Origin: a virus
Length of the DNA: 42,906 nucleotides
Strand: one strand, 5' to 3'
IMG/VR virus record: IMGVR_UViG_3300045988_069513
Span: 1-42,906 of that record
Both the position numbers and the translations under genes were made by a program. Positions within the stretch are counted from its first letter, which is position 1. The number at the start of each line of letters is the position of its first letter. Positions 120 to 28,021 of the stretch are shown in pieces. The notes below the pieces were generated by a model. That model ran no database searches. It was given only the letters and a program-made list of their open reading frames with translations, and had not been told where the DNA came from.

Positions 120-402
120 GTACGACTGGATCTACCGCCTGGACGCCATGATCGCCCGGACGGTGTACGAAACAGAGCCGGCTCCTGCGGTGGGGGCGGA
201 CGAAGAGCTGCCCGTCCCTGCTCCCTGGGACGACATCTACGGACTGTATGTGGCGTCCATGATCGACTTCTACAACAGGGAGTACGGGCACTACAACAAT
301 TCCGTCATGATGTTCCAGGAGCGGCTGGAGCAGTACCGGGCATGGTATATCCGGAACCATATGCCCAAAGGGGCGGACAATTTCCGGAATGTAATGGGGT
401 GA
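52..402 (+). CDS. Hypothetical virion-associated protein (116 aa)
   Basis: ATG at 52 overlaps the endolysin stop (TAATATG) and is preceded by GGAGGG at 41-46. The 10..402 track ORF is an upstream extension that lies inside the endolysin coding end. No family recognised. Confidence 0.7.
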   Translation: MTPNKVIETIDRLKPNVYTDEDKYDWIYRLDAMIARTVYETEPAPAVGADEELPVPAPWDDIYGLYVASMIDFYNREYGHYNNSVMMFQERLEQYRAWYIRNHMPKGADNFRNVMG

Positions 403-403
403 T

Positions 404-1915: not shown

Positions 1916-2290
1916 ATGATCTTTACGACACAGTTAGGCAGAATTGACTACACCAACGCCCCGGAGGCCCTGAAGAAGATGACGGATCACATCCGGTACA
2001 TTCAGGAGCAGCTGGAGTGGACGCTGCAGAACCTGGACTCCTCCAATATCACGGAGATCAACACCAGCGATACCAAGATTTCGTCTGACACCGTGGACTT
2101 TTCCGGCAACAACATTGTGCTGAATGGGCGCAACGGGGAACGGTTCGAGGTGGGTATTGACGAGGGCAGCGGAGACTTTGTCTTTGGCCTGTATGGCAGA
2201 GACGGCGCCCAGATCTTCTACCTGACGAACGACGGAAACCTGGTTATCACAAGAAATGCCACCATCACCGTTGATGGCGGCACATGGTAA
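1916..2290 (+). CDS. Hypothetical structural protein (124 aa)
   Basis: ATG immediately follows the TAA of the previous gene (TAAATG), in the same operon. Confidence 0.65.
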   Translation: MIFTTQLGRIDYTNAPEALKKMTDHIRYIQEQLEWTLQNLDSSNITEINTSDTKISSDTVDFSGNNIVLNGRNGERFEVGIDEGSGDFVFGLYGRDGAQIFYLTNDGNLVITRNATITVDGGTW

Positions 2291-2301
2291 GGAGTGAATT
2301 T

Positions 2302-3879
2302 ATGGGATATGTAATTGGTTCCACGAAGGGCCAGGCCATCGCCAACCTTTTGAAGGAGGACGAGACGTACAAGGCGTCTGACGGCTCCACCTGGAAAAAG
2401 AACGCAGACGGCACCGTGACCGTCACCGACAAGGCCGGCGGCGTCACGCAGAACGCACTCCCCGCGGACAGCTTCAAGGGCAGCGCCACCGGCGTTGTGG
2501 CGAACAATGCGACACAGCAGGCCCAGGTGGATATGCTGAACAAAAACTCTCTGCAATGGTGGACGGCGGATGACGCCGGGAAGCAGGCCCTGTCCGCAGC
2601 CAACCAAGCTCTTGGAGCGGCCCTGGGCGGCTCTGTGGCATATGATCCTACCACCGGCACCTGGTCTGGCGTAGCGGGTACGACGCCTGCCACGCAGAGC
2701 GCTGACGTGCTGAGCAACATCGGCAGCTTTTCCTACGACGTGGCACAGCCTACGTATGAAAGCCAGTACAGTGACAGGATCGACGCCATGCTGAATGAAA
2801 TCCTGAACCGGGAGAAGTTCAGCTATGACGTTGAGGCGGATCCCCTGTACCAGCAGTACAAGACACAGTACCTGCGGGAGGGCGACCGCTCCATGCGGGA
2901 CACGCTGGCGGCGGCTGCGTCCGGTGCCGGCGGCATGAACAGCTACGCGGTGACTGCGGCACAGCAGGCCAACGACTACTACGCGGCGCAGCTGGGGGAC
3001 AAGATCCCGGAGCTGTACCAGCTTGCCTACGAGATGTACCTGACGGACATTGACAACCAGGTGAGAGACTTGGGTCTGCTGCAGGATATGGACAACACCC
3101 AGTACGGACGCTATCGGGACACCATGAGCGACTGGCGCAATGACCGGGACTTCGCCTACGGGCAGTACCGGGATAACGCAGCCGACCTCAAGTGGGGCGC
3201 AGAATTTGACGAGTCTATCCGGCAATGGCAGACCGACTACGAGCGGAACGCACTGGAAAGTGACCGGAACTACAACCGCGACGTGTACGAGAGCGACCGG
3301 AAATATAACCGGGGTGTGTACGAGTGGGACACCAGCTTTGACTACGGCAAAGACCGCGACGCAGTCAAAGATCAGAACGACGCGTGGGACAAGGCTCTTA
3401 CCATCCTCCAGAACGGCGGATACCCCAGCGACGAGCTGCTGGAAGCTGCCGGCATGAGCGCAGCGGAGGCTAACTCCATCCGGGAAGCGCAGACTATTGT
3501 CTTTACCGGAGGCGGTGGTTCAGATGGTACTGGTGGTTCCGGTGGATCTGGCGGCGGCGATGAACCGGATGACACCCCCGTGTTCAACAACGATAACGGC
3601 AGTGGTTTCACAGAAAAGCATGCAGCCGCAGTCAAGGCAGCGCCTGACCGCACCTCCGCCGACGTGTCTGATCTCAGCAGCAAGGGTAAGAGCGCCTTGC
3701 AGAGCCTGAGTATGATGTACGACTCCATCAGTAATCAGTACCCTGCAAAAGACGGTATGTATCCCGTGGAAAAGACCATCCTTGCGATGGCTGCAGAGGG
3801 CAGCATCACGGCGGACGATGGGTACATTCTGATGCAGCATTTTGGCTACGACGGAGAGAAACACTTCCCTGAAGGGTAA
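2302..3879 (+). CDS. Hypothetical virion protein (525 aa) with a Tyr/Arg/Asp-rich repeat region and a Gly/Ser linker
   Basis: AAGGAG at about 2289 with ATG at 2302. Contains repeated R-N/D-Y-N-R-D/G-V-Y-E motifs (SDRNYNRDVYESDRKYNRGVYEWD) and the linker GGGGSDGTGGSGGSGGG. Confidence 0.7.
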   Translation: MGYVIGSTKGQAIANLLKEDETYKASDGSTWKKNADGTVTVTDKAGGVTQNALPADSFKGSATGVVANNATQQAQVDMLNKNSLQWWTADDAGKQALSAANQALGAALGGSVAYDPTTGTWSGVAGTTPATQSADVLSNIGSFSYDVAQPTYESQYSDRIDAMLNEILNREKFSYDVEADPLYQQYKTQYLREGDRSMRDTLAAAASGAGGMNSYAVTAAQQANDYYAAQLGDKIPELYQLAYEMYLTDIDNQVRDLGLLQDMDNTQYGRYRDTMSDWRNDRDFAYGQYRDNAADLKWGAEFDESIRQWQTDYERNALESDRNYNRDVYESDRKYNRGVYEWDTSFDYGKDRDAVKDQNDAWDKALTILQNGGYPSDELLEAAGMSAAEANSIREAQTIVFTGGGGSDGTGGSGGSGGGDEPDDTPVFNNDNGSGFTEKHAAAVKAAPDRTSADVSDLSSKGKSALQSLSMMYDSISNQYPAKDGMYPVEKTILAMAAEGSITADDGYILMQHFGYDGEKHFPEG

Positions 3880-3896
3880 CAAAGGAGGTCTGCCGC

Positions 3897-6800
3897 ATGG
3901 CACGTAAAATGAGCCAAAGCTCCAGAGACAAACTGAACGCCTACTATGACGAAATAGGGGTAAAAAGAAACGACAGAGAGGACGAGGGGAAACCCTCGCC
4001 CTCCTCCGCCGCTTCCAATCCTTCCACCGCTACCAATTCCAGCAGCGGCGCAACGACTTCAAAGCGGAAAATGAGCCAAGAGTCAAGAGATAAGCTCAAC
4101 GCCTATTATTCGCGCGTTGGAGCGGCGGCGCCGACATACACGCCGACAAAGGAAGATGACAAAGCACAGACTTCGTCCTCTGCGGCGGACACCAACAAGA
4201 CGAACCCTTTTTCTGAGGTTTGGAGGGGGTTTACGGATTTTTGGTGGTATGGTCGCGGTGATGCGTATGATGCGGTTACTAAGGCCAACCAGATCTACGA
4301 CACCAAGTTTGAGGAAGATAAGAAGGCTGTTGAGGAGTACAAGCAAAAGGAGCTCGACAAGTGGCTTGTGACCGAAACTGAGGCAGATGCGAGAGTATCT
4401 ACCGAAAAGACGAAACTTTCCACAAAGGCCGCAGATATTGCCGCGCTGGAAACAACCCTTTCTACGATGGCGGCAGAGTTTGAACAAACCCGCGACCCTG
4501 CCAAGTATTCCGCATACGAGGTAAAATACAACGAGTACGAGAAAGCGATTGCCGACTATGAAAAGTCTGTTGCAGCGTACACCGAATTGTGGAACAATGT
4601 CGCGCAGGAGAAAATTGCTGGTCGCAAAACGGACGATAGCGGATGGGAAACCGCAGGAAAGACTTTATGGGCCGGTGTTACTGGCCTTTCGGATGCTGTT
4701 GGCAAAACGCTCGATTATGTTTTCCCGACGGAGTTTTTGGGGAAATATGACCCGTTCACATGGATGAGCGACCAAGCAAGGCGGGAGAATTACGACGCGC
4801 AGATGGCACTTTCGGAGTCATTGGAAGGTCGCGGCTGGGTAGCAAAGACGGCGTCCGAACTTGGCATAGGCCTCATTCAGATGCTTCCTGACGTTGCGGC
4901 GACCGTGGCTTCCGGTGGCACAAACGCCACCACTTATGTGGATGATTTGTACCGCGCGGGATCATCTGCCGTTGCAGCCGCCAACAAGGCTGATAACCTC
5001 TGGGACTCCTTCAAAACAGCAAACGCGAAAATGTTTAGCAATCCCGGTTTCTATGTTGCCGCAGCGAGGACACTTGGCACCGACTACGAAACTGCAAAGG
5101 AAGCCGGAGCAACTGACGCACAGGCAACGGCCTATGCGCTGATTACCACCTACCTGAACGCCGGTATTGAGATTAGCGGTGGTATTCAGGCCTTGCCGGA
5201 TGCCCTTCAAACAGGAGACAAGAGCGCTATTCTTGACTGGATCCTTAGCGCACACGAGGAAGGCCTGGAAGAAGTTGTGCAGCGCTTTGTATCGGGATCT
5301 ATGGAAAAAGCTGTCTATGATCCCGACAAGGAGTGGTTTTCTACAACAAACGAGGACGCTATCATCCACCCGGAAACGATGGCAAAGGACTACGGCATGG
5401 GTACCGCTATTGGCGGCATTGCCGGTGGCGGGCAGACGGTAGCAATTAGCGTTCTGAACAGGATCGCACAGGCGAAAACACCCGACGTTCAGGCGCAGGT
5501 GATTGATGCTGTGCGGCACGATCCTGAAACTGTGAACGCCTTGGTGCAGGAGGCCAAAACCGCAGGCGAGACCGAGATCACGGAGCAGGTGGAGCAGAAA
5601 ATTGCCTCTGGCGAAGAAGTCACCCGACAGGAAGTTGTGCAGTTGGTCGCTGCCAGCGGCGCACAGGTGCAGGAAGAAACCACCGAGGCGGCAACGGAAC
5701 CCGAGGCGCAGACCGTCCCGCAGCAGGAAGAACCGGCAACGGAAGTAAAGAGAAGTGAATCGCTTGCTGAGGAAATGACGCTGGAGGGAGCGGTGGAAAA
5801 CGGCACCGTCACCGAAGCTGCGGTAGATACCGAAGGCGCAACCCGCAACGGCGTGGCCGTCCTGACCAACTACGCCAAGCAGGCGCACATGGGCGAAAAC
5901 GGCCTGAAAGCAATCGCTGATTTTTACGATGCCAACGAGAACCCGGAAACGGCACCGTTCTATGGCACCTTCGCAGCATATTGGAACGCCGGTTACAACG
6001 GAAAAGCGTTTGAGGAAGTCCGCGCCACCAACCGCGGTAACGTGTCCGATGTGGTTATGCGGGCCGCCTACAACGCCGGGCAGATGGACGCGATCCAGGG
6101 AAGTGGCAAAAAGGCCGTTGACAAAACAGCAGGCCAGACCGATAATATTTCCGGAAAAACCCAGAAAACTGCGAAGCCGAAAACTGTTCGAACCCAAAAG
6201 AGCGATTGGTCTGCGCACGATGTAACGTGGACGCTTCCTGCCGGCAGCCCCAACAAGGCTACTGTCGTTGCATACAGCACGAAGGCAACCAGCGACACAA
6301 TCGATGTTATGGCGGACGAGAATCCGACGGCCACCATCAGTCAGCTCCGCGACCTTATTCTCTATGATCAGGACGCGAAGAAGGTGCTGCAGCAGTACAT
6401 CGATGCGGGGTACGGAGATCAGGTGGCGAGCGAGTGGTTCAGCTATGACCGCAAGCGCGGCATTGGAAAGCCTGTCACAAAGTGGGTGTCGGGGGTAATA
6501 AACACTGAAGCGGACAATAAGGAGGCAACCGAACATGGCAAAGAGACCTTGGGAGAAGTTTCTGACGAAGGACGAGTACTGGAGCCTGACACGCGAGGGG
6601 CGGATGCAGGCGGACTACTGGACGGAGTGGCTTCCCAAAATGTGCAAGAGAATGCAGAAGGCCGGGACGCTGTATCCGACGCTGAAAGAGGAAGGGGAAC
6701 GCCTGTCGGAGCTGTTGTGGGAACTGATGCAGGTGCACAAGTACCCCGAGGACGGAGCGATGGAATTCATCAAGGAAGAAGTGTACGCACTTCCTCCGGA

Positions 6801-9800
6801 GTAAGCGAACAGGAGGTAAACGACGATGGCGATGTCGAAGGAAACTATCGAAAAGACCAAGCAAGCACTGCTGGCAGCGAAAGAACGGTGGGAGAAGATG
6901 CCACCGGAGGAGAAGAAGCGCCTGCAGGAAGAATACGAGAAAAATCCGGAGGAACGGATCCTGATACCGGACTGAGCGACGAAGATCCGCATCCGTGGGC
7001 AACGAAAAACGCCGTTGAGCCCGAACCCGGAAGCATTTCTGCAGAAGCAAAGCACGAAGCCGAAAGTTACGACGTTAAGTGTGTTGTCGTTTCGGACGAC
7101 GCGTGGGATGCAAATCATCCCTCTGCGCAGGCTTTTTCGCGGAATGGTGTGGTCTATGCCCGTGAACACATTGACGAAGTTTTCCGCGGCGTGGTGGCCC
7201 CGCATGAATTGACCCACGTTATGAAACAGCTTGGGTATAAGCCGTATCTGGATTTTCTTGATCGGACGAGCGATATGCTCAATTATGAAATCGAAGATGC
7301 ACAAGCACTGATGCAACACGTGGCGGAGCACGCACGCATTGACCTTTTTGGCATGGACGAGTCCGCCTCCCAAAAATTGTACGACGAGCTTAATGCCTCT
7401 GTTTACGGGCATATTGTTCGGGGAGATGTTGAGGGTAAATCCAGGTTTGGTCACGTAGATTTCCGCGATGCCTTCAACGACTTCGACGCTTATGCAACCG
7501 AACTGGCAGAAATTCACCGGCAGTTTAAAAACCGAAACCATCCCGGCGCGTCCGACACAGTTGCCCAGGAGCAGATCGAGCAGATATCCGACCTTGCAAA
7601 TCAGGAGGAGCCGAAAGGCACGAACTTTGTAATTGGCGCGAATGGTGCGAAGATGCCCACGACCCCGAAGGCGCGATACAAAGCCAACGCCGACGCTATC
7701 AAGACCCTGCGCGCCATTATGGCGGAAAACCGCATGGCAACCCCGCAGGAGCAGGAGACCCTTTCCAAATACACCGGCTGGGGCGGCCTGTCTGACGTTT
7801 TCAACGAGAAAAACGAGAGCTGGGCGAAAGAGTACAAGCAGCTTAAAAAGTTGCTGGATGACGGCGAGTATAAGACGGCAAAGGGATCTATCCTTGATGC
7901 GTACTACACTGACCCGTCGGTCATTCGCGGTATGTATAACGGCCTTGCGTCGCTTGGCTTCACCGGCGGCCGTATGCTGGAGCCTTCCTCCGGTGTTGGT
8001 CGTTTCATTGGCGCAATGCCGCAGGAAATGCTTGGCGGCGTGAAATCTTGGACGGCTGTTGAACTGGACAAGATCACCGGCAATATCGCAAAGTACCTTT
8101 ACCCCAACGCCGACGTGCGCGTGCAGGGCTATGAGACGGCAAAAATCCCTGACGGGTATATGGACGTTGTTATCGGGAACGTCCCCTTTGGTAATATTCC
8201 CATCGCGGACAAGGCTTATCCCGCAAGCGTTACGAAATCTATCCACAACTACTTTATCGCTAAGAGCCTTGATAAGCTGCGTCCCGGCGGCATTGCCGCC
8301 ATCATCACCAGCAGCGGCACACTGGACGCTATGGGCACTGAGGCGAGAAGCTATTTTATGAAGCAGGCGGACTTGATCGGCGCTATCCGTCTGCCGAACA
8401 CCGCATTTGAGGGCACCGGAACCAACGTTGTTTCTGACATTTTGGTGTTCAAGAAGCGGGAACCCGGCACGGCCTACAAAGGCGAAGCGTTTATTGAGGT
8501 TGGCAGAAAGCCTTGGACGGGCGAAAACCAATGGGGCGGTTACGAAATCAACGAGTATTTCCTAAAGCACCCTGAAATGGTGTTGGGTACGGCAGCTTAC
8601 GGAAAGGGACAGTACGGGCGCAATGTTGTGACCTACAATCCCCTTGACAGCAGACTTAGCCTGCAGAAGCAGATCGAGAAGGCTTTCGGCAAAATCAAGG
8701 CTAAGATGGACTACCCCGTGCAGCGCACGCAGGAGGAGATCAGAGCCGAGATCCGAGAAGCCTCCGGGAAGGTGAAGCAGGGAGGCCTTGTAAGCAAGGG
8801 CGGCAAGCTGTACCGCAATAACGGCGGTGTTCTTGAACACGCTGCGGAGATCAGCGAAAAGGACGCTGCTGCAGTTACTTCCATTCTTGAAATACGCGAT
8901 GCGGCACGAAACCTACTGAACCTCCAGATTGACGACGGCGGGGAAGCTGCCATCACGGCGGCACGGAGCAATCTTAACAAGCTCTATGACGCTTTTGTGA
9001 AAAAGTACGGCAGCCTGAACCTTCCGAAAAACAAGAAACTGGTGCAGAATGACGTGGACAGTCCCTTCATTCTGGCGCTGGAGGACTACAACAACGAGAC
9101 CCGCGTTGCAAAAAAAGCGGCCATCTTCAGCAAGAACACCATCACCGCGACGAAGGTTGTCACCCATGCGGACACCGTGGAGGAAGCGTTGACCGTTTCC
9201 CTGAACGAGACCGGCACCGTGGACATTCAGCGCATCGCCCAACTGACAGGCCAGCAGGCGGCAGCGGTAGAGCGGGAAATGCTGGAACGCGGTTTGGCGT
9301 TTAAGAACAGGAACGGCAACTTGGAAACCGCTGAAACCTATCTGTCCGGCAACGTCCGCGCGAAACTGCGCGACGCGGAAGCCCTGGCAGAGGGCGATGC
9401 GGACTACAACCGCAACGTGGAAGCCTTGAAAAAGGTAATTCCTGCCGACATTCCTGCCGAGGAGATCAAGGTGCGCCCTGGTGCAACGTGGATCCCCGAC
9501 AGCATCTATTCCGCCTTTGCTGGTGAAATGCTTGGCGGTGCCGGCATGACTTGGCGTAGCGGTCAGCGCGTTCCCGCTGTGGAGGTTGTCTATAACCGCG
9601 CCGTGGGCAAATTCTTCATCGAGGTCAACGATCCGTGGCTGAAAAGCCGCCCCGAGAATACCTCTACGTGGGGCACTTCTGACCGGCCTTTCGTCGGCGG
9701 TCAGAACAGCATCCTTGAAGCTGCACTGAATAATAAGATGGTTAGCGTGTATCGCACCGTCGGAGATAGCCGCGTGCTGGATAAGCAGGCCACGGCAGCA

Positions 9801-12800
9801 GCGCAGGAGAAATTGGAGAAGGTGCTGGCAGAATTCCAGAGCTGGATTTGGAAAGACGAGGCCCGGCGCACGGAATTGGGTGGTCTGTATAACGAGGTTT
9901 TCAACAACACCGTTACGCCGAAGTATGACGGCACGCACCTGACTGTGATCGGCAGCAATCCCGAGAAGCCTATGCGTCCTCACCAGAAGAACGCAGTGCA
10001 GAGAGTTATCAACAGCGGCGGCAACACCCTGCTTGCACACCGCGTTGGCGCAGGTAAGACCTACGAAATGGCGGCGGCAGCCATGAAACTGCGGCAGCTT
10101 GGTATTATCAAGAAGCCTCTGTTTGTGGTGCCGAAGCACCTTGTTGCACAGTGGGACAGCGAGTTCCGCGACTTCTTCCCTGCGGCGAAGATCCTTCCGC
10201 TTGAACACAAGGACTTCACGCCTGCCAACCGCAAACTGTTTGCAAACCGCATTGCCACCGGCGACTATGACGCGGTGATTATGAGCTATGAGCAGTTCGG
10301 CATGGTGCCTATGAGTCAGGAGCACCAGGAGGCGTTCTATCAGGAACAGATCGACGCGCTGGAAATGGCAATCCTTGAAAGCAAGCGTGCCAGCGGCAAG
10401 CGCGACCCGTCCGTGCGGGACATGGAGCGCAGCAAAAAGACCTTTGAAACGAAGCTCAAAAAGCTGGGTGACGGCAAAAAAGACGTTGACAACATCAACT
10501 TTGAGCAGTTGGGCATTGACGCACTGTTTGTGGACGAAGCTCACAACTTCAAAAATCTGTTCTACAATACGAAGATGCAGGGTGTGGCCGACCTTGGCGA
10601 TAAGGACGGCAGTATGCGGGCCTTCGACCTGTATATGAAGGTGCGCTACCTGCAGCGGCTCAACGGCGGGCGTGGCATCGTCTTTGCCACGGCAACACCG
10701 GTTATGAACAGCGTTGTTGAGCTTTACACCATGCAGCGGTATTTGCAAGGCGATCTTCTGGACGCGAAGGGCTTGACCAACTTCGACGCATGGGCGAACC
10801 AGTTTGGCGACGTTGTGACTATCCGCAAGATGAAAACCGGCGGCAACGGGTACGAGCTGAAACAGAGTCTTTCCAAGTACAAGAACCTTAGCGAAATGCA
10901 GCAGATGTTCCGCAGCTTTGCAGACGTTATCACCGACGCAGCAGACCTGCCCTATCTGAAAATCCCGAAGATGAAGGGCGGCAAGCGCATTGTTGTGGAA
11001 TGTGAGCCGAGTGCGTTCCAGGAGCAGTTCATGGAAGAGCTTGGCCAGCGTGCCGAGGCTTTGCGCGGTGCAGGCAAGGGCGGCAGCGAAGATCATATTT
11101 TTAAGGTTTTCGACGACGGTAAGAAGATCAGTTTTACACAGCGCATGATTGACAGCGACCTTCCTTATGAGGACGGCGGCAAGATTATGAAGTGCGCGGA
11201 GAACGTGCTGGAAATCTGGAAGCGCACCAAGGCCAACAAGGGCACGCAGCTTATCTTCTGCGACCGAGGAACCCCAGGCGGCGCAGAAGCGCAACGCGGC
11301 GTTTCTCTGTATGAGGACGTTAAGAACCTGCTCGTGGCGGGTGGGGTGCCCGCAAATCAGGTAGCTTTTATCCACGACGCAGACACCGAAGAGGCAAAGT
11401 CCAAACTGTTCAAGGATGTCAAGGCTGGCAACGTCCGCGTGTTGATCGGCTCCACGGCGAAGATGGGCACCGGCATGAATGTGCAGGATCGCATTGTAGC
11501 TATGCATGAGCTGAACGCTCCCGACCGTCCCGGCGATCTGGAACAGAACGAAGGGCGTGCCTTGCGGCAAGGCAATATGAACGAAGAGGTTGAGGTTTAC
11601 GCCTACGTAACCAAAAAGACCTTTGACAGCCGCCAGTGGGACAACCTGAAACGAAAGGCGACCTTCATTCATCAGATCATGGCCGGCGAGTACAACGGGC
11701 GCGAGGCGGACGGCGACGGCGACCTTGCATTGTCCGCGGCGGAAATTTCCGCGATTGCCTCCGACAACCCGCTTATCATGGAGCAGTTCGAAGTTTCCGA
11801 AAAGATTTCCAATCTGGAAAACCTGGAACGAGCGCATACGAAGGAAGTAGCCGAGGCCAAGCGGCGTATTGCAACCGCCGAAAAAGAGATCGAGAGCGAC
11901 ACGGAGTATCTGGAACGCTACAAGAAAGACCGTGAGAGCCGGCAGGAGACCGCAGGAGACAAGTTCCGTGCTTCCATAGGCGGTAAGACCTTTGCAGAAA
12001 GAAAAGCCGCAGGTGAGGCGCTGATTGCGGCTGCGAAGAGGACGCTTAACCTGAGCGCAGAGGCCGAGACCTACACTGAGGTTGGTAGCTTTGCCGGTTT
12101 CAAGCTGTTCGTTACCAGCAAGGGCGATATGATCCTGCGCGGCAAGGCGCAGTATCGCGGTACGGTCAATATGCAGAGCGCGGTTGGCACGATCCAGGCT
12201 CTGGAAGCAATCCCCAAGAGGATCGACGCCATTATTTCTGCTACCGAGACCCGACTGGCGGAGAATAAGGCGGCAATCACCAAGCTGCGGAAAACCGCTG
12301 CCTCCTCTTTCGACAAGGCGGAGGAGCTGATTGCAGCACGCGTGCGCGAGGCAGAGATCATGGCAGAACTGAACCCCCCGAGCGAGCAGCAGATGGCGGC
12401 GCTTGATGACGGCGACGATGTGGATAACGATGTTTCTTCTGTTGCCGATGCCGAACGGTGGACAGCAAAGCGAGTGGGCGGTAGCGAGAAAGCCCCCAAA
12501 TCGCTGAGCGAGATTGTAGAACAAATCCGGCAGGACTTTGGCGTTCACATCACCACCGGACACGTTCGCGGCAAGGGCACACGAGGACAGTACAACCACC
12601 AGAACCAGGGGATCAGAACCAAGGTCGCAAACAACCTCCCCACGATTGCGCATGAGTTGGGGCACCACCTGACGCAGAAGTACAACCTGCTTTCCGGCCT
12701 AGAGGCTTCCGTCAAGACAGAGTTGGAGGACGCGCTGGGTGAAGGCAAAGAGAACTACCCGGAGAAGAAGTGGCATAGTGAAGGCTTCGCTGAATATCTG

Positions 12801-15800
12801 CGCAAGTTCTTGCAGAACCGGGAGACGGCGGCCATTGACTATCCCGAAGTAACCAAATTGTTCTTGAACGCGCTCTCCGGCAAAGACCGCGCCCAGCTCG
12901 AAGAGTTGGCCGACGAGGTGAACGCCTATTACTCTCTGGACGCGGACACCGCAACTAGCGCTATCAGGCTCCGCGAGGAAGGCGCACCGGATGCACGAAC
13001 CGTTAGCCAGAAGATCCGGGCCAAGATGAGCGCTCTGTATCAGGCGTGGGTGGACAGCAACGAAGGCATAAAGCAATTCGACCGGGCAACCGGGGCAAAC
13101 ACCTACAAGATTGCCTCCAATGCTGCCTATGCAGATGCGATTGCCGGGCAGATCATCACCGGGGACCTGACTGGCACGAATGGACAGTACGTTGGCCCCG
13201 GTCTGAAAACCGCATTGTATGGCCTGGACATGAACAACAAGCAGGAGTACCGGCTGTTTGGCGAATACCTGACCGTGAAGCACGGCCCGGAACGCCTTGC
13301 AGAGGGTATGCGGATCTTCGCGGATGACAGAAAGAACAGTACGGGATGGATGCAGCGCAGGCAGGCAGAGTTGGAAGCCCAATATCCGCAGTTTGCGGAA
13401 ATCTCTGACCGGCTGTATGAGTTCATCACGGCTTTCCACGAGGCATGGGGCGTGGAAACTGGCCTGATCGGAGAGGATACGTTTGAGGAGTGGAAGGTGC
13501 GCTGGCAGCATTACGTTCCCCTAAACCGCGCCGTCGGCGTTGGCAACCGGGGCATTGGTGCGAAGCGCGGCTTTGCGAACCAAACCAGCACCATCAACAA
13601 GGCTCGCGGCAGTGGTTTGGACATTGTGCATCCCGTGGACAACCTGATTAACAACATCGTTAAAATGGTTAGTGCAGGCGTGCGGAACAATGTTATGGCT
13701 ACGATCACCGAGCAGGCGACGCAACTTGGCGCTAACGCAATGTTCCTTGAAAAGGTTCCTATGCCCTTGAAGGTGACGAAGGTGGATATGACTGGAGTAA
13801 AAGACCAGCTCACCGAGATGCTGGAAGGTAGTGACCTGGACGCAAAGAGCAAAGCGAAAGCCGGCGAAGTTGTCAGCAATCTGGACGACATTCTGTTCCA
13901 GTACGGCAGAGGCAAAGCATACGGAGACGTTGTTACCGTTCTAAAGGACGGCAAGCCTGAGTTCTGGAAAATCAACGATCCCCAGCTCCTCAGCTCCATC
14001 ACAAACATGGCACCTAAAACGATGGACGGTATTCTGGACGCTTACGCAGTTGTCAGCCGGTTCATGACTTCGAACATCACCGGGAACAATGTGATCTGGT
14101 CTCTGTTCTCCAACTTCCCCCGCGATATGATGACGTTCTTTACCTACTCCAAGGATAAGAACCCTAAGCGGATGATTAAGGGCGTGAGCGATGCGTTTAT
14201 CAACCGCGCTAAAGGAGACAAGGCTGATCCTCTCTACAAGGAGTTCCTTGCGATGGGCGGCGGCAAGACCAGCGCATACACCGCGGACAGAGATCTTGCC
14301 AAGAGGGCAAGGGAGAAACTTTCTGGCAAGAAAATCAACGCCAACCCCCTTGACTGGATCGCATATGTCAGCGATACGATCGAGAACGGCCCGCGATACG
14401 CTACCTACAAGCTCATGCGTGACCACGGCATGAACCCGCAGGAGGCTTTCTACGAGGCTATGGACATCACGGTTAACTTCCGGCGCGGCGGTAGAATTGC
14501 CCGGGAGTTGAACAAGGTGGTTCCGTTCTTCAATGCGAATGTTCAGGGCCTCGACAAATTCCGGCGCTGGATTACAGCAGAGGGAGTGCCTGCGGAGCAT
14601 CGCAAAAAGGTCATTAAAACCAGAACGACGTACTACGTTGCGGCAAGCGCCGCGCTGGCTGCGATGATCTACGCGCTGAACATGGGCAGCGGTGAAAGAG
14701 AGAAGGAGTATGAGCAGCTCTCCACATATACCAAGAACAGCTTTTGGTGCATCCCGCTTGGCGACGGCAAGTTTTTTGCCATCCCCAAGCCCCGAGAGAT
14801 CGGCGTGCTGAGTTCGTTCTTTGAGTCAACGCTGGAATATGTGATCGGAGAGAACGACCATGCGTTTGACGACTTCTACTCCTACGCAATGGAAAACTGC
14901 CTTCCCTCCATTGCAAACGACATTGCCCAGATCCCCAACAAGGGCCTTGTCGAAACCGGAATGAACATCATAGGCAGTTTTGGCGTTATCGGCGTAATTG
15001 GTTATCTGGGCGCAAACCGCGACTTCCTTGGGCGGCCCATCGTCTCTAGCGGCTTGCAGAACCTTGAACCCAAGGATCAGTACACCGAGCGCACAAGCAA
15101 GATTGCCTATTGGCTTGGGCAGGCGTATGGCGGCAGCCCTCAGCAGATCGACTACTTTTTCCAGCAGGTGCTTGGCGGTTGGTGGAAAGCCCAAAAAGCG
15201 CTGTTCCCCGTTGGCCAAGAAAACGTGGACTATACGCTTGGCGTGCAGAACACCTACGTGAAGGACAACCAGTATTCCACCGACCTTACCAACTGGCTGT
15301 ATGACCGGAAAGACGCAACCAGCAGGGCAAATGCAAGCGACCCGGCCAACATGGAGAAGGCCATCTCTGCGAAGTGGGATAGCAACATGACCGATTTCTA
15401 CGGCTCCTACTACAAGCTGGCGAAGAACAAGGCAGAGACCGTTGCTACACGGTCTACCCGGCAGCTTGTATTGGAGATGATCTTGGAATATCAGAAGGCA
15501 ATCGACACAAACGCCAAAACGGAGACGCAGCGAGCTGTTGAGGAAGTCTGCACGAGCAAGAGCAGCACCGAGTTCCTTCCTTCTGTTATGCCTGTAGAAG
15601 TGACAGACGGTAAGGGCGTGAAGCACGTATTGTCTGATATTCAGTATGTTGAATTCCAAACGGACTATAACCGCCTGTACTGGGAGATCGTAGAGGAGAC
15701 TCTATCCGGCAATGTGAATGAGCGAGCAGAAATTTTGAAGGCCGCTAAACGTGTCGCAAAAGAGGAGGCTGTGGAACGTGTTCTTGCGCGCATCGGGGCG

Positions 15801-16244
15801 CCGAAGTCTGCCTACACAACTACGTATGGCAACGTGTCCGCCGACAACGTGACGGAGTTCTTGGCAAGTGTTTCCGCGGCGGACGATGATGGCAGCGTTA
15901 AACAGGCTGAGGTGATTGACATTATCACGGGAATGGGCCTTAGTGACTCTGATGCATGGACGCTGTATTTCAGCAAGTACGACGGCAAAGCCGCAACTGC
16001 TGCGGAGGAGCACGGCATTCCTGCTGAGTTGTTTATGAACACGAAGCTGGAGCTGGACAACATCAAGCCGGACTACCGCAGCGACGGAACAGTTATCCGC
16101 GACAGCCGGCGCAGGAAGGTGGAATCCTATCTCGCAACTGTCTGCAGCGACTACAAGGAGTACCTGTTCTTCCTCGGGATGGAGTTCAGCTCTGTCAAGG
16201 ACGACGCGGACTACATCGCGTATTTCGGCAGGGAAGATGATTAA
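3897..16244 (+). CDS. Giant polyvalent protein (4115 aa): zincin + N6-adenine methyltransferase + SNF2 helicase + second zincin + C-terminal hydrophobic region (DarB-like core)
   Basis: Uninterrupted ORF with AAAGGAGG 8 nt upstream of ATG 3897. Motifs read directly: HELTH, EPSSGVGRF...GNVPFG, GAGKT, DEAH, ATATPVMNS, QNEGRALRQGN, HELGHH. See the finding on the cryptic internal boundary at 6491-6975. Confidence 0.8.
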   Translation: MARKMSQSSRDKLNAYYDEIGVKRNDREDEGKPSPSSAASNPSTATNSSSGATTSKRKMSQESRDKLNAYYSRVGAAAPTYTPTKEDDKAQTSSSAADTNKTNPFSEVWRGFTDFWWYGRGDAYDAVTKANQIYDTKFEEDKKAVEEYKQKELDKWLVTETEADARVSTEKTKLSTKAADIAALETTLSTMAAEFEQTRDPAKYSAYEVKYNEYEKAIADYEKSVAAYTELWNNVAQEKIAGRKTDDSGWETAGKTLWAGVTGLSDAVGKTLDYVFPTEFLGKYDPFTWMSDQARRENYDAQMALSESLEGRGWVAKTASELGIGLIQMLPDVAATVASGGTNATTYVDDLYRAGSSAVAAANKADNLWDSFKTANAKMFSNPGFYVAAARTLGTDYETAKEAGATDAQATAYALITTYLNAGIEISGGIQALPDALQTGDKSAILDWILSAHEEGLEEVVQRFVSGSMEKAVYDPDKEWFSTTNEDAIIHPETMAKDYGMGTAIGGIAGGGQTVAISVLNRIAQAKTPDVQAQVIDAVRHDPETVNALVQEAKTAGETEITEQVEQKIASGEEVTRQEVVQLVAASGAQVQEETTEAATEPEAQTVPQQEEPATEVKRSESLAEEMTLEGAVENGTVTEAAVDTEGATRNGVAVLTNYAKQAHMGENGLKAIADFYDANENPETAPFYGTFAAYWNAGYNGKAFEEVRATNRGNVSDVVMRAAYNAGQMDAIQGSGKKAVDKTAGQTDNISGKTQKTAKPKTVRTQKSDWSAHDVTWTLPAGSPNKATVVAYSTKATSDTIDVMADENPTATISQLRDLILYDQDAKKVLQQYIDAGYGDQVASEWFSYDRKRGIGKPVTKWVSGVINTEADNKEATEHGKETLGEVSDEGRVLEPDTRGADAGGLLDGVASQNVQENAEGRDAVSDAERGRGTPVGAVVGTDAGAQVPRGRSDGIHQGRSVRTSSGVSEQEVNDDGDVEGNYRKDQASTAGSERTVGEDATGGEEAPAGRIREKSGGTDPDTGLSDEDPHPWATKNAVEPEPGSISAEAKHEAESYDVKCVVVSDDAWDANHPSAQAFSRNGVVYAREHIDEVFRGVVAPHELTHVMKQLGYKPYLDFLDRTSDMLNYEIEDAQALMQHVAEHARIDLFGMDESASQKLYDELNASVYGHIVRGDVEGKSRFGHVDFRDAFNDFDAYATELAEIHRQFKNRNHPGASDTVAQEQIEQISDLANQEEPKGTNFVIGANGAKMPTTPKARYKANADAIKTLRAIMAENRMATPQEQETLSKYTGWGGLSDVFNEKNESWAKEYKQLKKLLDDGEYKTAKGSILDAYYTDPSVIRGMYNGLASLGFTGGRMLEPSSGVGRFIGAMPQEMLGGVKSWTAVELDKITGNIAKYLYPNADVRVQGYETAKIPDGYMDVVIGNVPFGNIPIADKAYPASVTKSIHNYFIAKSLDKLRPGGIAAIITSSGTLDAMGTEARSYFMKQADLIGAIRLPNTAFEGTGTNVVSDILVFKKREPGTAYKGEAFIEVGRKPWTGENQWGGYEINEYFLKHPEMVLGTAAYGKGQYGRNVVTYNPLDSRLSLQKQIEKAFGKIKAKMDYPVQRTQEEIRAEIREASGKVKQGGLVSKGGKLYRNNGGVLEHAAEISEKDAAAVTSILEIRDAARNLLNLQIDDGGEAAITAARSNLNKLYDAFVKKYGSLNLPKNKKLVQNDVDSPFILALEDYNNETRVAKKAAIFSKNTITATKVVTHADTVEEALTVSLNETGTVDIQRIAQLTGQQAAAVEREMLERGLAFKNRNGNLETAETYLSGNVRAKLRDAEALAEGDADYNRNVEALKKVIPADIPAEEIKVRPGATWIPDSIYSAFAGEMLGGAGMTWRSGQRVPAVEVVYNRAVGKFFIEVNDPWLKSRPENTSTWGTSDRPFVGGQNSILEAALNNKMVSVYRTVGDSRVLDKQATAAAQEKLEKVLAEFQSWIWKDEARRTELGGLYNEVFNNTVTPKYDGTHLTVIGSNPEKPMRPHQKNAVQRVINSGGNTLLAHRVGAGKTYEMAAAAMKLRQLGIIKKPLFVVPKHLVAQWDSEFRDFFPAAKILPLEHKDFTPANRKLFANRIATGDYDAVIMSYEQFGMVPMSQEHQEAFYQEQIDALEMAILESKRASGKRDPSVRDMERSKKTFETKLKKLGDGKKDVDNINFEQLGIDALFVDEAHNFKNLFYNTKMQGVADLGDKDGSMRAFDLYMKVRYLQRLNGGRGIVFATATPVMNSVVELYTMQRYLQGDLLDAKGLTNFDAWANQFGDVVTIRKMKTGGNGYELKQSLSKYKNLSEMQQMFRSFADVITDAADLPYLKIPKMKGGKRIVVECEPSAFQEQFMEELGQRAEALRGAGKGGSEDHIFKVFDDGKKISFTQRMIDSDLPYEDGGKIMKCAENVLEIWKRTKANKGTQLIFCDRGTPGGAEAQRGVSLYEDVKNLLVAGGVPANQVAFIHDADTEEAKSKLFKDVKAGNVRVLIGSTAKMGTGMNVQDRIVAMHELNAPDRPGDLEQNEGRALRQGNMNEEVEVYAYVTKKTFDSRQWDNLKRKATFIHQIMAGEYNGREADGDGDLALSAAEISAIASDNPLIMEQFEVSEKISNLENLERAHTKEVAEAKRRIATAEKEIESDTEYLERYKKDRESRQETAGDKFRASIGGKTFAERKAAGEALIAAAKRTLNLSAEAETYTEVGSFAGFKLFVTSKGDMILRGKAQYRGTVNMQSAVGTIQALEAIPKRIDAIISATETRLAENKAAITKLRKTAASSFDKAEELIAARVREAEIMAELNPPSEQQMAALDDGDDVDNDVSSVADAERWTAKRVGGSEKAPKSLSEIVEQIRQDFGVHITTGHVRGKGTRGQYNHQNQGIRTKVANNLPTIAHELGHHLTQKYNLLSGLEASVKTELEDALGEGKENYPEKKWHSEGFAEYLRKFLQNRETAAIDYPEVTKLFLNALSGKDRAQLEELADEVNAYYSLDADTATSAIRLREEGAPDARTVSQKIRAKMSALYQAWVDSNEGIKQFDRATGANTYKIASNAAYADAIAGQIITGDLTGTNGQYVGPGLKTALYGLDMNNKQEYRLFGEYLTVKHGPERLAEGMRIFADDRKNSTGWMQRRQAELEAQYPQFAEISDRLYEFITAFHEAWGVETGLIGEDTFEEWKVRWQHYVPLNRAVGVGNRGIGAKRGFANQTSTINKARGSGLDIVHPVDNLINNIVKMVSAGVRNNVMATITEQATQLGANAMFLEKVPMPLKVTKVDMTGVKDQLTEMLEGSDLDAKSKAKAGEVVSNLDDILFQYGRGKAYGDVVTVLKDGKPEFWKINDPQLLSSITNMAPKTMDGILDAYAVVSRFMTSNITGNNVIWSLFSNFPRDMMTFFTYSKDKNPKRMIKGVSDAFINRAKGDKADPLYKEFLAMGGGKTSAYTADRDLAKRAREKLSGKKINANPLDWIAYVSDTIENGPRYATYKLMRDHGMNPQEAFYEAMDITVNFRRGGRIARELNKVVPFFNANVQGLDKFRRWITAEGVPAEHRKKVIKTRTTYYVAASAALAAMIYALNMGSGEREKEYEQLSTYTKNSFWCIPLGDGKFFAIPKPREIGVLSSFFESTLEYVIGENDHAFDDFYSYAMENCLPSIANDIAQIPNKGLVETGMNIIGSFGVIGVIGYLGANRDFLGRPIVSSGLQNLEPKDQYTERTSKIAYWLGQAYGGSPQQIDYFFQQVLGGWWKAQKALFPVGQENVDYTLGVQNTYVKDNQYSTDLTNWLYDRKDATSRANASDPANMEKAISAKWDSNMTDFYGSYYKLAKNKAETVATRSTRQLVLEMILEYQKAIDTNAKTETQRAVEEVCTSKSSTEFLPSVMPVEVTDGKGVKHVLSDIQYVEFQTDYNRLYWEIVEETLSGNVNERAEILKAAKRVAKEEAVERVLARIGAPKSAYTTTYGNVSADNVTEFLASVSAADDDGSVKQAEVIDIITGMGLSDSDAWTLYFSKYDGKAATAAEEHGIPAELFMNTKLELDNIKPDYRSDGTVIRDSRRRKVESYLATVCSDYKEYLFFLGMEFSSVKDDADYIAYFGREDD
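6535..6804 (+). CDS. Nested +1-frame ORF (89 aa) inside the giant ORF; possibly TnpV-like (recollection only)
   Basis: AAGGAGG at 6519-6525 lies 9 nt before ATG 6535. Third codon positions are mostly G/C and the translation is globular-looking (MAKRPWEKFLTKDEYWSLTREG...). The giant frame over the same bases reads as G/R/D/E/A low complexity. Confidence 0.55.
   Translation: MAKRPWEKFLTKDEYWSLTREGRMQADYWTEWLPKMCKRMQKAGTLYPTLKEEGERLSELLWELMQVHKYPEDGAMEFIKEEVYALPPE
6826..6975 (+). CDS. Second nested +1-frame ORF (49 aa), coiled-coil-like
   Basis: AGGAGG at 6811-6816 lies 9 nt before ATG 6826. Translation MAMSKETIEKTKQALLAAKERWEKMPPEEKKRLQEEYEKNPEERILIPD. The TGA at 6973-6975 forms CTGA with giant-frame codon CTG 6972-6974. 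Confidence 0.45.
   Translation: MAMSKETIEKTKQALLAAKERWEKMPPEEKKRLQEEYEKNPEERILIPD
7203..7217 (+). other. HExxH zincin metallopeptidase motif 1 (HELTH) within the giant ORF
   Basis: Translation VVAPHELTHVMKQLGY in the giant frame. Confidence 0.6.
7758..8460 (+). other. Gamma-class N6-adenine DNA methyltransferase domain (approximate bounds)
   Basis: SAM-binding motif I LEPSSGVGRF at 7977-8006, and a catalytic motif IV variant NVPF (GNVPFG) at 8178-8189 about 60 aa downstream. This is the order typical of gamma-class amino-MTases. Confidence 0.75.
9975..11650 (+). other. SNF2-family helicase/ATPase domain (approximate bounds)
   Basis: Motif I GAGKT at 10047-10061, Ia PLFVVPKHLVAQW, II DEAH at 10533-10544, III ATATPVMNSVVELY, VI QNEGRALRQGN at 11544-11573. 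Confidence 0.85.
12651..12668 (+). other. HExxH zincin motif 2 (HELGHH) within the giant ORF
   Basis: Translation PTIAHELGHHLTQKYN in the giant frame. Confidence 0.55.
14628..15015 (+). other. Two hydrophobic, TM-like segments near the C-terminus of the giant protein
   Basis: YYVAASAALAAMIYAL and IIGSFGVIGVIGYLGA are uncharged hydrophobic runs of 16-17 residues. Confidence 0.45.
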
Positions 16245-16249
16245 AAACG

Positions 16250-16290
16250 AGAGGAGGCTCCCGTGTGGGGCCTCCTCTTTGTTTTTATTT
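16250..16290 (+). terminator. Rho-independent terminator ending the late operon
   Basis: GAGGAGGC(t)CCC - gtgt - GGGGCCTCCTC hairpin (16251-16277) followed by TTTGTTTTTATTTT, 6 nt after the giant ORF stop. Confidence 0.85.
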
Positions 16291-16312: not shown

Positions 16313-16341
16313 TTGACATTTATTTCCCGGAATGTTAGAAT
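16313..16341 (+). promoter_or_regulatory. Near-consensus sigma-A/70 promoter reading towards the candidate attP and the integrase 3' end
   Basis: TTGACA (16313-16318), a 17-nt spacer, then TAGAAT (16336-16341). No plus-strand ORF lies downstream. Confidence 0.6.
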
Positions 16342-16375: not shown

Positions 16376-16425
16376 CCATGTACTAACTGAGTTTGTCCCG
16401 AAGGCTATGCTTAGTTAGGACATGG
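16376..16425. other. Candidate attP: 50-bp imperfect palindrome next to the serine integrase gene
   Basis: CCATGTACTAACTGAG (16376-16391) and CTTAGTTAGGACATGG (16410-16425) are inverted repeats matching 14/16, separated by 18 bp. The site lies 7 bp from the int stop. Size and symmetry fit large-serine-recombinase att sites. Confidence 0.45.
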
Positions 16426-16431: not shown

Positions 16432-17859
16432 CTAAAAAAATTTAATGGACTTTATTCGCTTGACGTCGCTTGTCCATTCAACCTCTATGCTCTCAATGAT
16501 GGATCGCCAGAAGGAACGCTTGTGCTCATCGTCAAGGGCCTTGTAGATCTTCTTCCATCCGCCCGAAAGGACTTCCCTGATGTGTGTGTAGTCTCGCACC
16601 TCGTCGTGCTCGCTGCCCACCAGCGCGTCATGCAGCTGCTTGTTCAGCTCCTCAAAGTCTTTTTCGTATTGCTCTATGGTGCGGATCTTCCCGGTTCGCC
16701 ATGAATAGTTCAAACGGTCAATCTGTTCGTTGATTTTATCAACGTCCGGCTTGGCCTTTTTTGCGTTTTTGGCGGCTACTTTCACGCTTTGCACTTCTGC
16801 GTCCTTCAGCAGATCCTCGATGTTGGAGAGCAGCATTCTTTCGAAGGTGTTCTCAAAGATCGATTTTCCGAAGGAGCATCTGCCGGCGGAAAAATGCTTG
16901 TTCTGGCAGCGGTACTGCTTGTAAACGTAATGGCCTCCGCCCTTTCTCGTTCCGGTATAGACACCGCCTTTGAGAAGCCTTCCGCATTCCGGGCACCGGA
17001 TAAGCCCGCTGAACCAATACGCGCGGTTTTCCGTGGTGTTCTGCCGGACGTTACGGCGGGTGACGTTCTGCATCTTGTCCCATTCTTCCTTGGTCATGTA
17101 CCCCTCGCAGAAATTGGAGTTTCCCCGGTAGCTTCCGTAGAGGATCGGCTTCTTCAGGTACTTGGAGAGGTTGCTGTAGTGCATGTCAATGCCGTAGGTC
17201 TCTTTGAGATGCCACATTGTGGACTTTATGCTTTGGTGCAGCATCACATGGCGGAGCATATCCTCGACAATATGCTGGGTTTTCGGGTCCTTCATTACGC
17301 GGCGCTTTCCGGTCTCCTTGTCCAGGGCATAGGTAAAACCGAAGGTGCAGTTACCGGACAGCCATTGGCCGTTGGCGATCTTGTAATCGTTGACCATGCG
17401 CACGCGCTCGCTGCCGGTGTCCGCCTCCATTTCCGCAATGGTGATCTTCATGTTCACCAGCATGCGGCCCTGGGCGGTTGTGAGATCGTAGTCCTCCTCG
17501 GTGGCTACCCATTCCACCGGCTCGATCCGGCGCATGCACTCGTGGTATTCCCGGACGGAGCGGAAAAATCTGTCCAGCTTGACGAAGATGATCTGCTCGA
17601 ATTTGCCCTTCTCTGCGTCCTGGATCATCCGCTGGAGTTCAGGGCGCTTTGCGATTGGCTTTCTGCCGGACACGCCCTCGTCCACATACCATTCAACGAT
17701 TTTCATGTTGTGTTCTTGCGCGTATTTCTCCAGGTGCATTCTCTGAGAGTCCAGGGATATGCCCCGGAGCTTCTGCTCATCCGTTGACACGCGGATGTAT
17801 GCTGCCACAAGAAGGATTCTTGCAACGCTTGAGACTGTTGCAAAGGATGTTTCTTCCAT
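16432..17859 (-). CDS. int: Large serine recombinase (integrase), 475 aa
   Basis: N-terminal resolvase-type catalytic motif AAYIRVSTDEQ...GISLDSQ, a recombinase domain, the zinc-ribbon motif CPECGRLL...YRCQ, and a C-terminal coiled coil. Confidence 0.9.
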   Translation of the reverse strand: MEETSFATVSSVARILLVAAYIRVSTDEQKLRGISLDSQRMHLEKYAQEHNMKIVEWYVDEGVSGRKPIAKRPELQRMIQDAEKGKFEQIIFVKLDRFFRSVREYHECMRRIEPVEWVATEEDYDLTTAQGRMLVNMKITIAEMEADTGSERVRMVNDYKIANGQWLSGNCTFGFTYALDKETGKRRVMKDPKTQHIVEDMLRHVMLHQSIKSTMWHLKETYGIDMHYSNLSKYLKKPILYGSYRGNSNFCEGYMTKEEWDKMQNVTRRNVRQNTTENRAYWFSGLIRCPECGRLLKGGVYTGTRKGGGHYVYKQYRCQNKHFSAGRCSFGKSIFENTFERMLLSNIEDLLKDAEVQSVKVAAKNAKKAKPDVDKINEQIDRLNYSWRTGKIRTIEQYEKDFEELNKQLHDALVGSEHDEVRDYTHIREVLSGGWKKIYKALDDEHKRSFWRSIIESIEVEWTSDVKRIKSIKFF

Positions 17860-28019: not shown

Positions 28020-28021
28020 TT

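Follow-up and report, generated by a model that had tools for sequence, protein, structure and literature searches.

A giant DarB-like polyvalent protein gene in the genome of an uncultured temperate gut phage

Locus and domain architecture

The phage genome analyzed here is IMG/VR record IMGVR_UViG_3300045988_069513, and its whole stretch of 42,906 nt is called the window. One open reading frame (ORF) at 3897-16244 (+) has no internal stop codon and encodes a protein of 4,115 residues (453 kDa, pI 5.3), called the giant protein below. A Shine-Dalgarno sequence (AAAGGAGG, 3881-3888) lies 8 nt before its ATG. The two 119-bp ends of the window are exactly identical (1-119 = 42788-42906), so the unique circular genome is 42,787 bp, and the giant gene takes up 28.9% of it, in line with the 29% of a 42.8-kb genome given in an initial annotation of this DNA. 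The same annotation had called the product a DarB-like polyvalent protein and had placed the gene last in the late operon, followed by a terminator and a candidate attP; both the assignment and the gene order held, and a serine integrase comes next. Taken as a whole, the locus is probably best explained by a phage polyvalent protein that is packaged in the virion, is ejected, and protects the incoming DNA.

The features are collected in Table 1. All of the motifs quoted initially were found, namely HELTH, EPSSGVG, NVPF, the helicase set, and HELGH, and the C-terminal segments described as hydrophobic proved to be moderately so. Domain annotation with hidden Markov models, one of the checks proposed in the initial annotation, matched an Eco57I-type methylase (borderline), ResIII/SNF2, Helicase_C, and LPD38. 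Pfam searches with ten sub-segments at E <= 10 returned nothing credible outside these known domains. To define zones of conservation, the BLASTP matches of 152 related ORFs were mapped on the giant protein. Residues 1,220-2,850, comprising the LPD36-like region, the methylase, a 490-residue region, the helicase, and a coiled coil, are common to about 130-150 of the 152 ORFs; residues 2,850-4,029 are common to about 35 ORFs, and the last 85 residues or so are variable. Judged by these zones, the giant protein is composed of four parts, which are a variable N-terminal third, a DarB-type methylase-helicase pair, a conserved C-terminal module, and a short variable tail.

Table 1. Features of the giant gene and of the genome around it (window coordinates).
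Feature	Position (nt)	Residues	Strand	Basis
Four genes directly upstream of the giant gene	52-402, 404-1915, 1916-2290, 2284-3879		+	Gene order
'Internal virion protein'	404-1915		+	PHROG 511
N-terminal leader, peptide RKMSQ(S/E)SRDKLNAYY twice	3903-4112	3-18, 57-72	+	Ser/Thr/Pro-rich linker between copies
Module N2, coiled coil, then Gly/Ala-rich weakly hydrophobic region	4275-6101	127-735	+	Recurrent core, residues 236-606
Low-complexity linker, probably disordered	6507-6986	871-1030	+	Composition
Z1, first HExxH domain	6987-7571	1031-1225	+	HELTH at residues 1103-1107 (nt 7203-7217); YDELNA at residues 1162-1167
LPD36-like helical region (GWGG) and gamma-class N6-adenine methyltransferase	7572-8486	1226-1530	+	Pfam, P1 DarB alignment, motifs
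Conserved inter-domain region, methylase to helicase	8487-9956	1531-2020	+	Covered by about 130 of 152 related ORFs
SNF2-type helicase/translocase	9957-11696	2021-2600	+	Pfam ResIII, SNF2-rel_dom, Helicase_C
Post-helicase coiled-coil-rich linker	11697-12491	2601-2865	+	Weak coiled-coil Pfam matches; conserved to about residue 2850
C-terminal module (Z2 HExxH, YVPLNR, LPD38, hydrophobic segments)	12492-15296	2866-3800 (about 935)	+	Pfam, alignment, AlphaFold2
Z2 HELGH	12651-12665	2919	+	EGFAEYLR about 40 residues downstream
YVPLNR motif	13512-13529		+	Sequence
Two weakly hydrophobic segments	14637-14693, 14943-15014	3581-3599, 3683-3706	+	Kyte-Doolittle means 1.3-1.5
LPD38 (PF18857)	14703-15188		+	Pfam, 103.4 bits (cut-off 27)
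C-terminal tail	15297-16241	3801-4115	+	Conserved to about residue 4029 in close relatives; last 85 or so variable
Intrinsic terminator closing the late operon	16249-16279		+	13-bp stem, 8 G-C pairs, T-run
Candidate attP, 50-bp imperfect inverted repeat	16376-16425		.	16-nt arms 88% complementary, 18-nt spacer
Large serine recombinase (integrase), convergent with the giant gene	16432-17859		-	PHROG 95, E 1.7e-95; Pfam Resolvase and Zn_ribbon_recom
Large terminase	30336-31754		+	Late block, which also holds the small terminase
Portal	31766-33772		+	Late block
Capsid	35164-36156		+	Late block
Fibre-like genes	37035-41047		+	Late block
Endolysin	42112-42837		+	Late block

Methylase-helicase pair

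PHROG 10089 ('DarB-like antirestriction') matches residues 979-2886 at E = 0 with 1,499 bits. By BLASTP, DarB of phage P1 (2,255 residues) aligns with the methylase at 31% identity over 199 residues (E 1e-23), with the SNF2 N-lobe at 24% over 468 residues (E 3e-25), and with the C-lobe at 31% over 93 residues. The three segments, which span the methylase and both helicase lobes, are colinear in the two proteins, the GNVPFG motif is common to them, and the similarity is confined to the pair. An LPD38 module and HExxH domains, both present in the giant protein, are lacking in P1 DarB.

The Pfam match to the Eco57I-type methylase is borderline, at 24.8 bits vs a cut-off of 25.3. Methylase motif I, EPSSGVG (residue 1362, nt 7980-8000), and motif IV, NVPF (residue 1428, nt 8178-8189), are 66 residues apart, as in gamma-class N6-adenine methylases, and a GWGG motif about 90 residues before motif I, compared by motif alone, would fit the GxG(G/A/S) motif in the published description of LPD36 (PMC5512222). 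The helicase motifs are GAGKT (residues 2051-2055, nt 10047-10061), DEAH (residue 2213, nt 10533-10544), and QNEGRALRQG (residue 2550, nt 11544-11573). NVPF is conserved in 124 of 137 relatives and DEAH in 146 of 149. Residues 1531-2020, between the two enzymes, have no Pfam match. The best PDB sequence matches for the giant protein were ISWI-type remodellers (E ~1e-3), and there were no others.

The triad of LPD36, methylase, and SNF2 helicase, with its motif order, has been described for polyvalent proteins, and the pair occurs in both phages and conjugative elements (PMC5512222). The polyvalent proteins of Iyer et al. carry many unrelated enzymatic domains per chain, this triad, and the phage-only LPD38, and their genes stand beside late genes (PMC5512222), as here, where the LPD36 part of the triad is putative; the giant protein does not differ from them in kind.

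Weak PADLOC and NCBIfam matches to DrmD, BrxHI, PbeA, and ZorD were obtained over the helicase motifs, and on that ground the gene might be read as a BREX-, DISARM-, or type ISP-like defence system by which the prophage protects the lysogen. These matches reached 17-58 bits vs family cut-offs of 600-1,100, and those of PADLOC were local only. Nuclease or partner genes are absent, the gene stands in the late structural operon and not in the lysogeny module, and PHROG 10089 is the best family match by a wide margin. Such a defence system is thus very unlikely.

Related proteins

Searches with tblastn matched the methylase-helicase pair in 154 phage records at 35-40% identity, among them VvAW1, SopranoGao, LASTA ('PLxRFG protein'), PEp14, Pavtok, Atu_ph08, PBC5, and human faecal phage contigs. 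A scan of one genome per species gave at least 539 related stretches, mostly from Oscillospiraceae, Clostridia, and Lachnospiraceae, and a further 73 related loci came from IMG/VR, many of them on contigs of 41.8-43.5 kb. The longest ORF in the related loci commonly has 3,900-5,180 residues. Since dozens of related contigs have an unbroken ORF of this length in the same place, the giant ORF is neither a chance ORF nor an assembly artefact. That the window is a single metagenomic contig could favor an assembly or frame artefact fusing several genes; cultured phages and dozens of independent contigs have the same domain order, and this, together with the ORF being free of stop codons, makes such a fusion extremely improbable.

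Podophage giants that match PHROG 10089 are Bcep22 gp75, JC1 gp69 (4,515 residues), SopranoGao gp06 (4,369 residues), VvAW1 gp01 (3,640 residues), and Atu_ph08 gp21 (4,877 residues). Their hosts are Proteobacteria, namely Burkholderia (Bcep22 and JC1), Klebsiella (SopranoGao), Vibrio (VvAW1), and Agrobacterium (Atu_ph08), whereas the lineage of the phage described here is found in gut Clostridia. The pair of VvAW1 and SopranoGao is 35-38% identical to the giant protein over about 1,570 residues. VvAW1 gp01, SopranoGao gp06, and JC1 gp69 close the virion gene block, like the giant gene; VvAW1 gp01 follows 'DNA ejection' genes, and SopranoGao gp06 follows internal virion and structural genes. 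In the C-terminal part of the podophage giants, an HExxH motif lies upstream of a PLxR-type motif, as here. SopranoGao has PLARFG, whereas the giant protein has YVPLNRAVG in place of an exact PLxRFG; a search for the literal motif (PL.RFG) found none in the giant protein. The N-terminal cargo of Bcep22 is a lytic transglycosylase, and that of Atu_ph08 a cell-wall hydrolase and a peptidase, whereas no muralytic domain was found among the Pfam matches of the giant protein.

The size of the protein for a small capsid had been considered unusual. This was not borne out, as VvAW1 gp01 takes up about 28% of 38.7 kb, JC1 gp69 takes up 22% of its genome, and many contigs of about 42 kb have ORFs of 3,900-5,200 residues. 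VvAW1 is a direct precedent for a gene of such relative size in a genome below 40 kb.

C-terminal module

All 36 relatives compared retain the HExxH motif of Z2, and all 35 compared retain YVPxxR. In the C-terminal alignment (34 sequences), P343 is invariant and Y341, V342, and R346 are nearly so (>=90%). The AlphaFold2 model of residues 2866-3800 has a predicted local distance difference test score (pLDDT) of 82 and a predicted template modelling score of 0.79. Searched against PDB with Foldseek, it had no match with E below 0.5; several of the higher-probability local matches, all with E >0.5, were zincins (IrrE/PprI, selecase, and lethal factor). Against BFVD, the model had 76 matches at E <= 1e-3 with a top template modelling (TM) score of 0.74. 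Of the 76, 50 were listed, and most of the named ones in this list come from the C-terminal parts of 'large polyvalent protein' entries whose cargo is RelA/SpoT, lysozyme, or methylase; E. coli phage PTXU04 and Ralstonia phage Alix are among them. The model thus supports a conserved fold with no solved counterpart. Structure prediction of segments, also proposed as a check, thereby gave confident models of this module and of Z1, and no significant PDB match for either.

The module is joined to varied cargo. In a large protein index it follows zeta toxin, ADP-ribosyltransferase, PBECR, and ART-PolyVal domains. It occurs without the methylase-helicase pair in Vibrio phage 1.183.O (2,706 residues), Bacillus phage poppyseed, and Pelagibacter phage HTVC034P, and also in the 'LPD5 domain-containing' proteins of 933W-like Shiga toxin (Stx) phages. 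LPD38 proteins of the ejection type include gp47 of the Stx phage phi24B (2,811 residues), the 'LPD5 domain-containing protein' of 933W/TL-2011c (2,263 residues), and PTXU04_00025 (2,198 residues). The last is a structural match to the C-terminal model (E 9e-30, TM 0.63), and the TL-2011c protein is encoded by the last large gene in the late block of that phage. These proteins differ from the giant protein in having no annotated methylase-helicase pair and other LPD domains instead.

Large proteins that have some of these modules in common with the giant protein have been found in purified virions. The DarB-like JC1 gp69 gave 51 unique peptides and the second-highest score in the proteome of CsCl-purified virions (PMC9144972), and phi24B gp47, in which LPD38 and a metallopeptidase accompany LPD5 and LPD1, is an abundant virion protein by proteomics but is absent from the cryo-electron microscopy map; it was proposed to be an encapsidated ejection protein (bioRxiv 10.64898/2026.04.10.717836). 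These findings count against an unpackaged protein that acts in the cytoplasm as a late orphan methylase on progeny DNA and owes its large size to gene fusions. The gene is expressed with the late genes and the methylase is predicted to be active, as such a role would need; whatever the cargo, however, the LPD38 module, which is restricted to phages, always stands on its C-terminal side, the gene comes directly after internal-virion-protein genes, and we consider this explanation improbable.

A further alternative is that the protein is chiefly a structural ejection protein, in which the SNF2 translocase would be a motor pulling the genome in, as the T7 and N4 RNA polymerases do, and the methylase would be secondary. 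It draws on the knock-down of the LPD38 protein PTXU04_00025, which impairs infection, so that the protein is needed for efficient infection (bioRxiv 10.1101/2023.09.18.558157), on the proposal that phi24B gp47 forms the ejection conduit (bioRxiv 10.64898/2026.04.10.717836), on the translocation of SNF2 enzymes on double-stranded DNA (PMC5512222), and on the nearly invariant helicase motifs. Many proteins with the LPD38 module have no helicase at all, so DNA entry in the LPD38 class needs none. Moreover, the helicase is almost always paired with a methylase (PMC5512222), whose motifs are equally conserved, and the role described for P1 DarB is protection from type I systems (EcoB and EcoK) and not DNA entry (PMC5512222; PMC9024508). 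A motor of this kind is therefore unlikely here, if conceivable.

N-terminal region

Residues 1 to about 1,220 are hardly conserved, even where the core of the relatives is 65-74% identical. A word-indexed search returned four relatives for these 1,220 residues and three for Z1, which would make the N-terminal third nearly unique; this was ruled out by an exhaustive HMMER search with residues 127-1225, which gave 829 cluster representatives at E <= 1e-3.

Module N2 is 44% identical to P0001 and 37% identical to P0002 and has no Pfam or PHROG match. In 103 proteins with a median length of 2,149 residues, N2 is always near the N-terminus (median start, residue 170). Its recurrence at the N-termini of long proteins suggests a role in delivery over one as an effector, and from this position N2 may act in delivery.

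In Z1, residues H1103, E1104, H1107, Y1117, D1163, and E1164 are invariant in 59 homologues. The AlphaFold2 model (pLDDT 88.8) has three strands, the HExxH helix, and a later helix with D/E1163-1164. No significant PDB fold match was obtained with Foldseek; edema factor was among the non-significant matches. Sub-threshold Pfam matches for the HExxH domains were M9 (E 0.008) and reprolysin (E 0.07). In the predicted topology of both HExxH domains, strands come before the HExxH helix, and a helix with a Glu comes after it. As neither HExxH model has a significant PDB fold match, the zincin assignment is not proven by structure.

In the five closest relatives (L082, L083, L003, L085, and L005), a PF03496 ADP-ribosyltransferase stands directly before the methylase, in the slot that Z1 holds here. 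Other relatives have PBECR3 in this slot, or a nucleotidyltransferase and a peptidoglycan-binding domain.

The leader contains the duplicated peptide of Table 1 (copies at 3903-3950 and 4065-4112, +); in the 154 loci fetched, no copy was present within the first 600 residues of the longest ORF. A third copy, of the form (R/K)KMSQxS(R/K)DKLNAYY, lies at about 18150-18215 (-) inside ORF 17944-18432, and its DNA is about 90% identical to that of the leader peptide over about 55 nt, in inverted orientation. The ORF stands next to the integrase and encodes a 162-residue membrane protein with a signal or transmembrane segment at its N-terminus, a YHYHHG motif, and further transmembrane segments at its C-terminal end; it had no Pfam match and no phage match. 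The repeat could have been left by recombination, or the two proteins could share an interaction peptide.

The swap in the slot and the peptide copies could be taken to mean that the giant protein is a plug-and-play carrier of injected effectors whose slot was recently exchanged, or, as a second possibility, that the leader peptide has a decoy in the lysogen, where the copy in the membrane protein might let the lysogen block ejection by superinfecting siblings. For a recent exchange, it can be noted that the relatives with the ADP-ribosyltransferase have a 65-74% identical core and that the stretch holding Z1 has the lowest GC3 of the gene. If the slot was recently exchanged, Z1 would be a host-directed effector protease and no self-processing peptidase. 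Both ideas are speculative, and we give them little weight.

Composition and ancestry

The codon third positions of the giant gene had been described as richer in A/T than those of the head and fibre genes, with a separate ancestry, for example from an integrative and conjugative element (ICE), as a possible reason. The first part holds for the head genes, as the G+C content at third positions (GC3) is 0.656 in the giant gene and 0.79-0.80 in terminase, portal, and capsid. It does not hold for the fibre genes, where GC3 is equally low in the 745-residue fibre gene (0.631) and in the gene at 39947 (0.644). In 300-codon windows, GC3 is low over the first 1,200 residues (0.46-0.64), with a minimum of 0.457 at residues 901-1200, a window that overlaps the low-complexity linker. 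Over residues 1201-4115 it is 0.66-0.72, with 0.68-0.72 in the conserved core, and lies within the range of other genes, such as the integrase (0.72) and the putative scaffold (0.70). The deficit is confined mainly to the first 1,200 residues, so it is a signature of the exchangeable N-terminal region and not of the DarB-like pair.

Relatives at 50-82% identity for which an upstream flank is available are preceded by the same internal-virion-protein genes. A Roseburia faecis chromosome (L063, 5075-12607) has a 2,510-residue methylase-helicase protein without LPD38 that is about 40% identical over the pair. Its neighbors are an NlpC/P60 hydrolase, a sortase, a SpoVG-domain protein, DUF6674, and a serine recombinase, a setting that appears ICE-like rather than phage-like, in keeping with the published occurrence of the pair in phages as well as conjugative elements (PMC5512222). 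From sequence comparison, a separate, ICE-derived origin of the giant gene cannot be shown and is not supported as first put forward, and the direction of transfer cannot be told.

Genome context

The late block crosses the circular junction, so that the endolysin is followed by the four upstream genes of Table 1 and the giant gene comes last. The order of the internal-virion-protein gene block before the giant gene is kept in about 50 related loci. None of the large ORFs resembled a tape-measure gene, an observation that was not tested further and that agrees with a short-tailed phage. Here, the lysis genes (41562-42115 and 42112-42837) stand upstream of the internal-virion-protein genes and the integrase follows the giant gene. 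In the close relatives L082, L085, and L087, the giant gene is followed by the endolysin instead, and the flanking DNA that was fetched showed no homologue of the integrase.

The 50-bp palindrome and the integrase stop codon are 6 nt apart, and the palindrome has the shape expected of a serine-integrase attP, for which it is a candidate. No integrated copy that would confirm attP was found, and the integrase is on record only on this contig. A strong sigma-70-like site at 16313-16341 (+), with TTGACA, a 17-nt spacer, TAGAAT, and an upstream TG (11 of 12 matches), sits between the late terminator and the palindrome. It aims into the 3' end of the integrase gene, so its transcripts would be antisense to the integrase. 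Beyond the integrase are helix-turn-helix regulators, SSB, RusA, and an IstB-like loader. Local G+C falls to 0.43 at 28001-29000, compared with 0.54-0.60 nearby, in a region of small early or middle genes.

The 119-bp repeat at the ends of the window is a circular assembly overlap and no biological terminal repeat. Its length matches the assembler k-mer in the ENA contig name k119_459554 (ERZ27229650). No near-identical phage record was found by nucleotide search.

Proposed function and significance

The sequence analysis establishes the ORF, its domains and modular build, the conserved catalytic motifs, the synteny with internal-virion-protein genes, and homology to proteins studied by experiment. 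For the phage of the window, we infer packaging, ejection, processing, methylation, and anti-restriction from the related proteins. The phage would be a short-tailed temperate phage of gut Clostridia (Oscillospirales-like). It would make the giant protein late, enclose it in the capsid, and eject it into the host either before the DNA or together with it. Within the variable N-terminal region, the N2 part, which recurs in other giants, may serve delivery, and the slot behind it would be an exchangeable effector site, holding the HExxH metalloprotease-like Z1 here and an ADP-ribosyltransferase in the closest relatives. The DarB-type pair would track along the incoming genome and protect it in cis from restriction, probably of type I by analogy with P1 DarB. 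The C-terminal module would be the constant part common to giant podophage virion proteins, most likely mediating incorporation into the virion and the forming of, or passage through, an envelope-spanning ejection conduit. Cleavage of the polyprotein into functional pieces may be the task of one HExxH domain or of both.

The volume of such a protein can be compared with that of the genome. With textbook values of 1.21 cubic angstroms per dalton and about 1.07 cubic nm per bp of B-DNA, we estimate about 550 cubic nm for the 453-kDa protein vs about 46,000 cubic nm for 42.8 kb of DNA. One copy is thus about 1% of the DNA volume, and its size is no physical obstacle.

P1 DarB is a head protein, with about 40 copies per virion, and blocks EcoB and EcoK (PMC9024508; PMC5512222). 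P1 is a large myovirus in which DarB loading needs DarA, Hdf, DdrB, and Ulx, and its N-terminal 30-residue capsid-targeting signal has no evident counterpart in the giant protein. Zincin-like peptidases have been proposed to process polyvalent polyproteins (PMC5512222). The N4 virion RNA polymerase gp50 (about 3,500 residues) is a giant encapsidated protein that is ejected into the host; the likeness is by analogy only, its cargo being an RNA polymerase, and its C-terminal region, which is needed for encapsidation, has an HExxH zincin-like domain (PMC5512222).

Several points weigh against the proposed function. The phage is known from one metagenomic contig only. No homologues of DarA, Hdf, DdrA, DdrB, or Ulx were found with E below 0.1 in the window, and with these accessory proteins absent, packaging here cannot follow the P1 route. 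How DarB acts, by methylation or by shielding, is still unsettled (PMC5512222). The Kyte-Doolittle means of both C-terminal hydrophobic segments fall below the usual transmembrane cut-off, so they are too weak to be called transmembrane helices. The C-terminal module is only 27% identical to the type in Stx phages over about 210 residues (E ~1e-10, tblastn), and the backing for the zincin fold of both HExxH domains consists of motifs, topology, and sub-threshold matches.

The dual role in ejection and injected anti-defence put forward in the initial annotation has already been proposed in the literature for such modules and is supported here by homology only. The class, the architecture, and the genome position are likewise in the literature already. 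Giant DarB-like and LPD38 podophage proteins have been described since about 2011, were framed in 2017, and were recently shown to be in virions and to matter for infection. New here is a further example of the family from an uncultured gut phage, and the family is hardly extended in kind by it. Uncultured temperate phages from gut Clostridia carry such proteins very often. With the domain swap in the N-terminal slot, two natural variants can be compared directly, and the clean separation of a constant delivery module from exchangeable cargo aids annotation and would aid the delivery of payloads into gut anaerobes.

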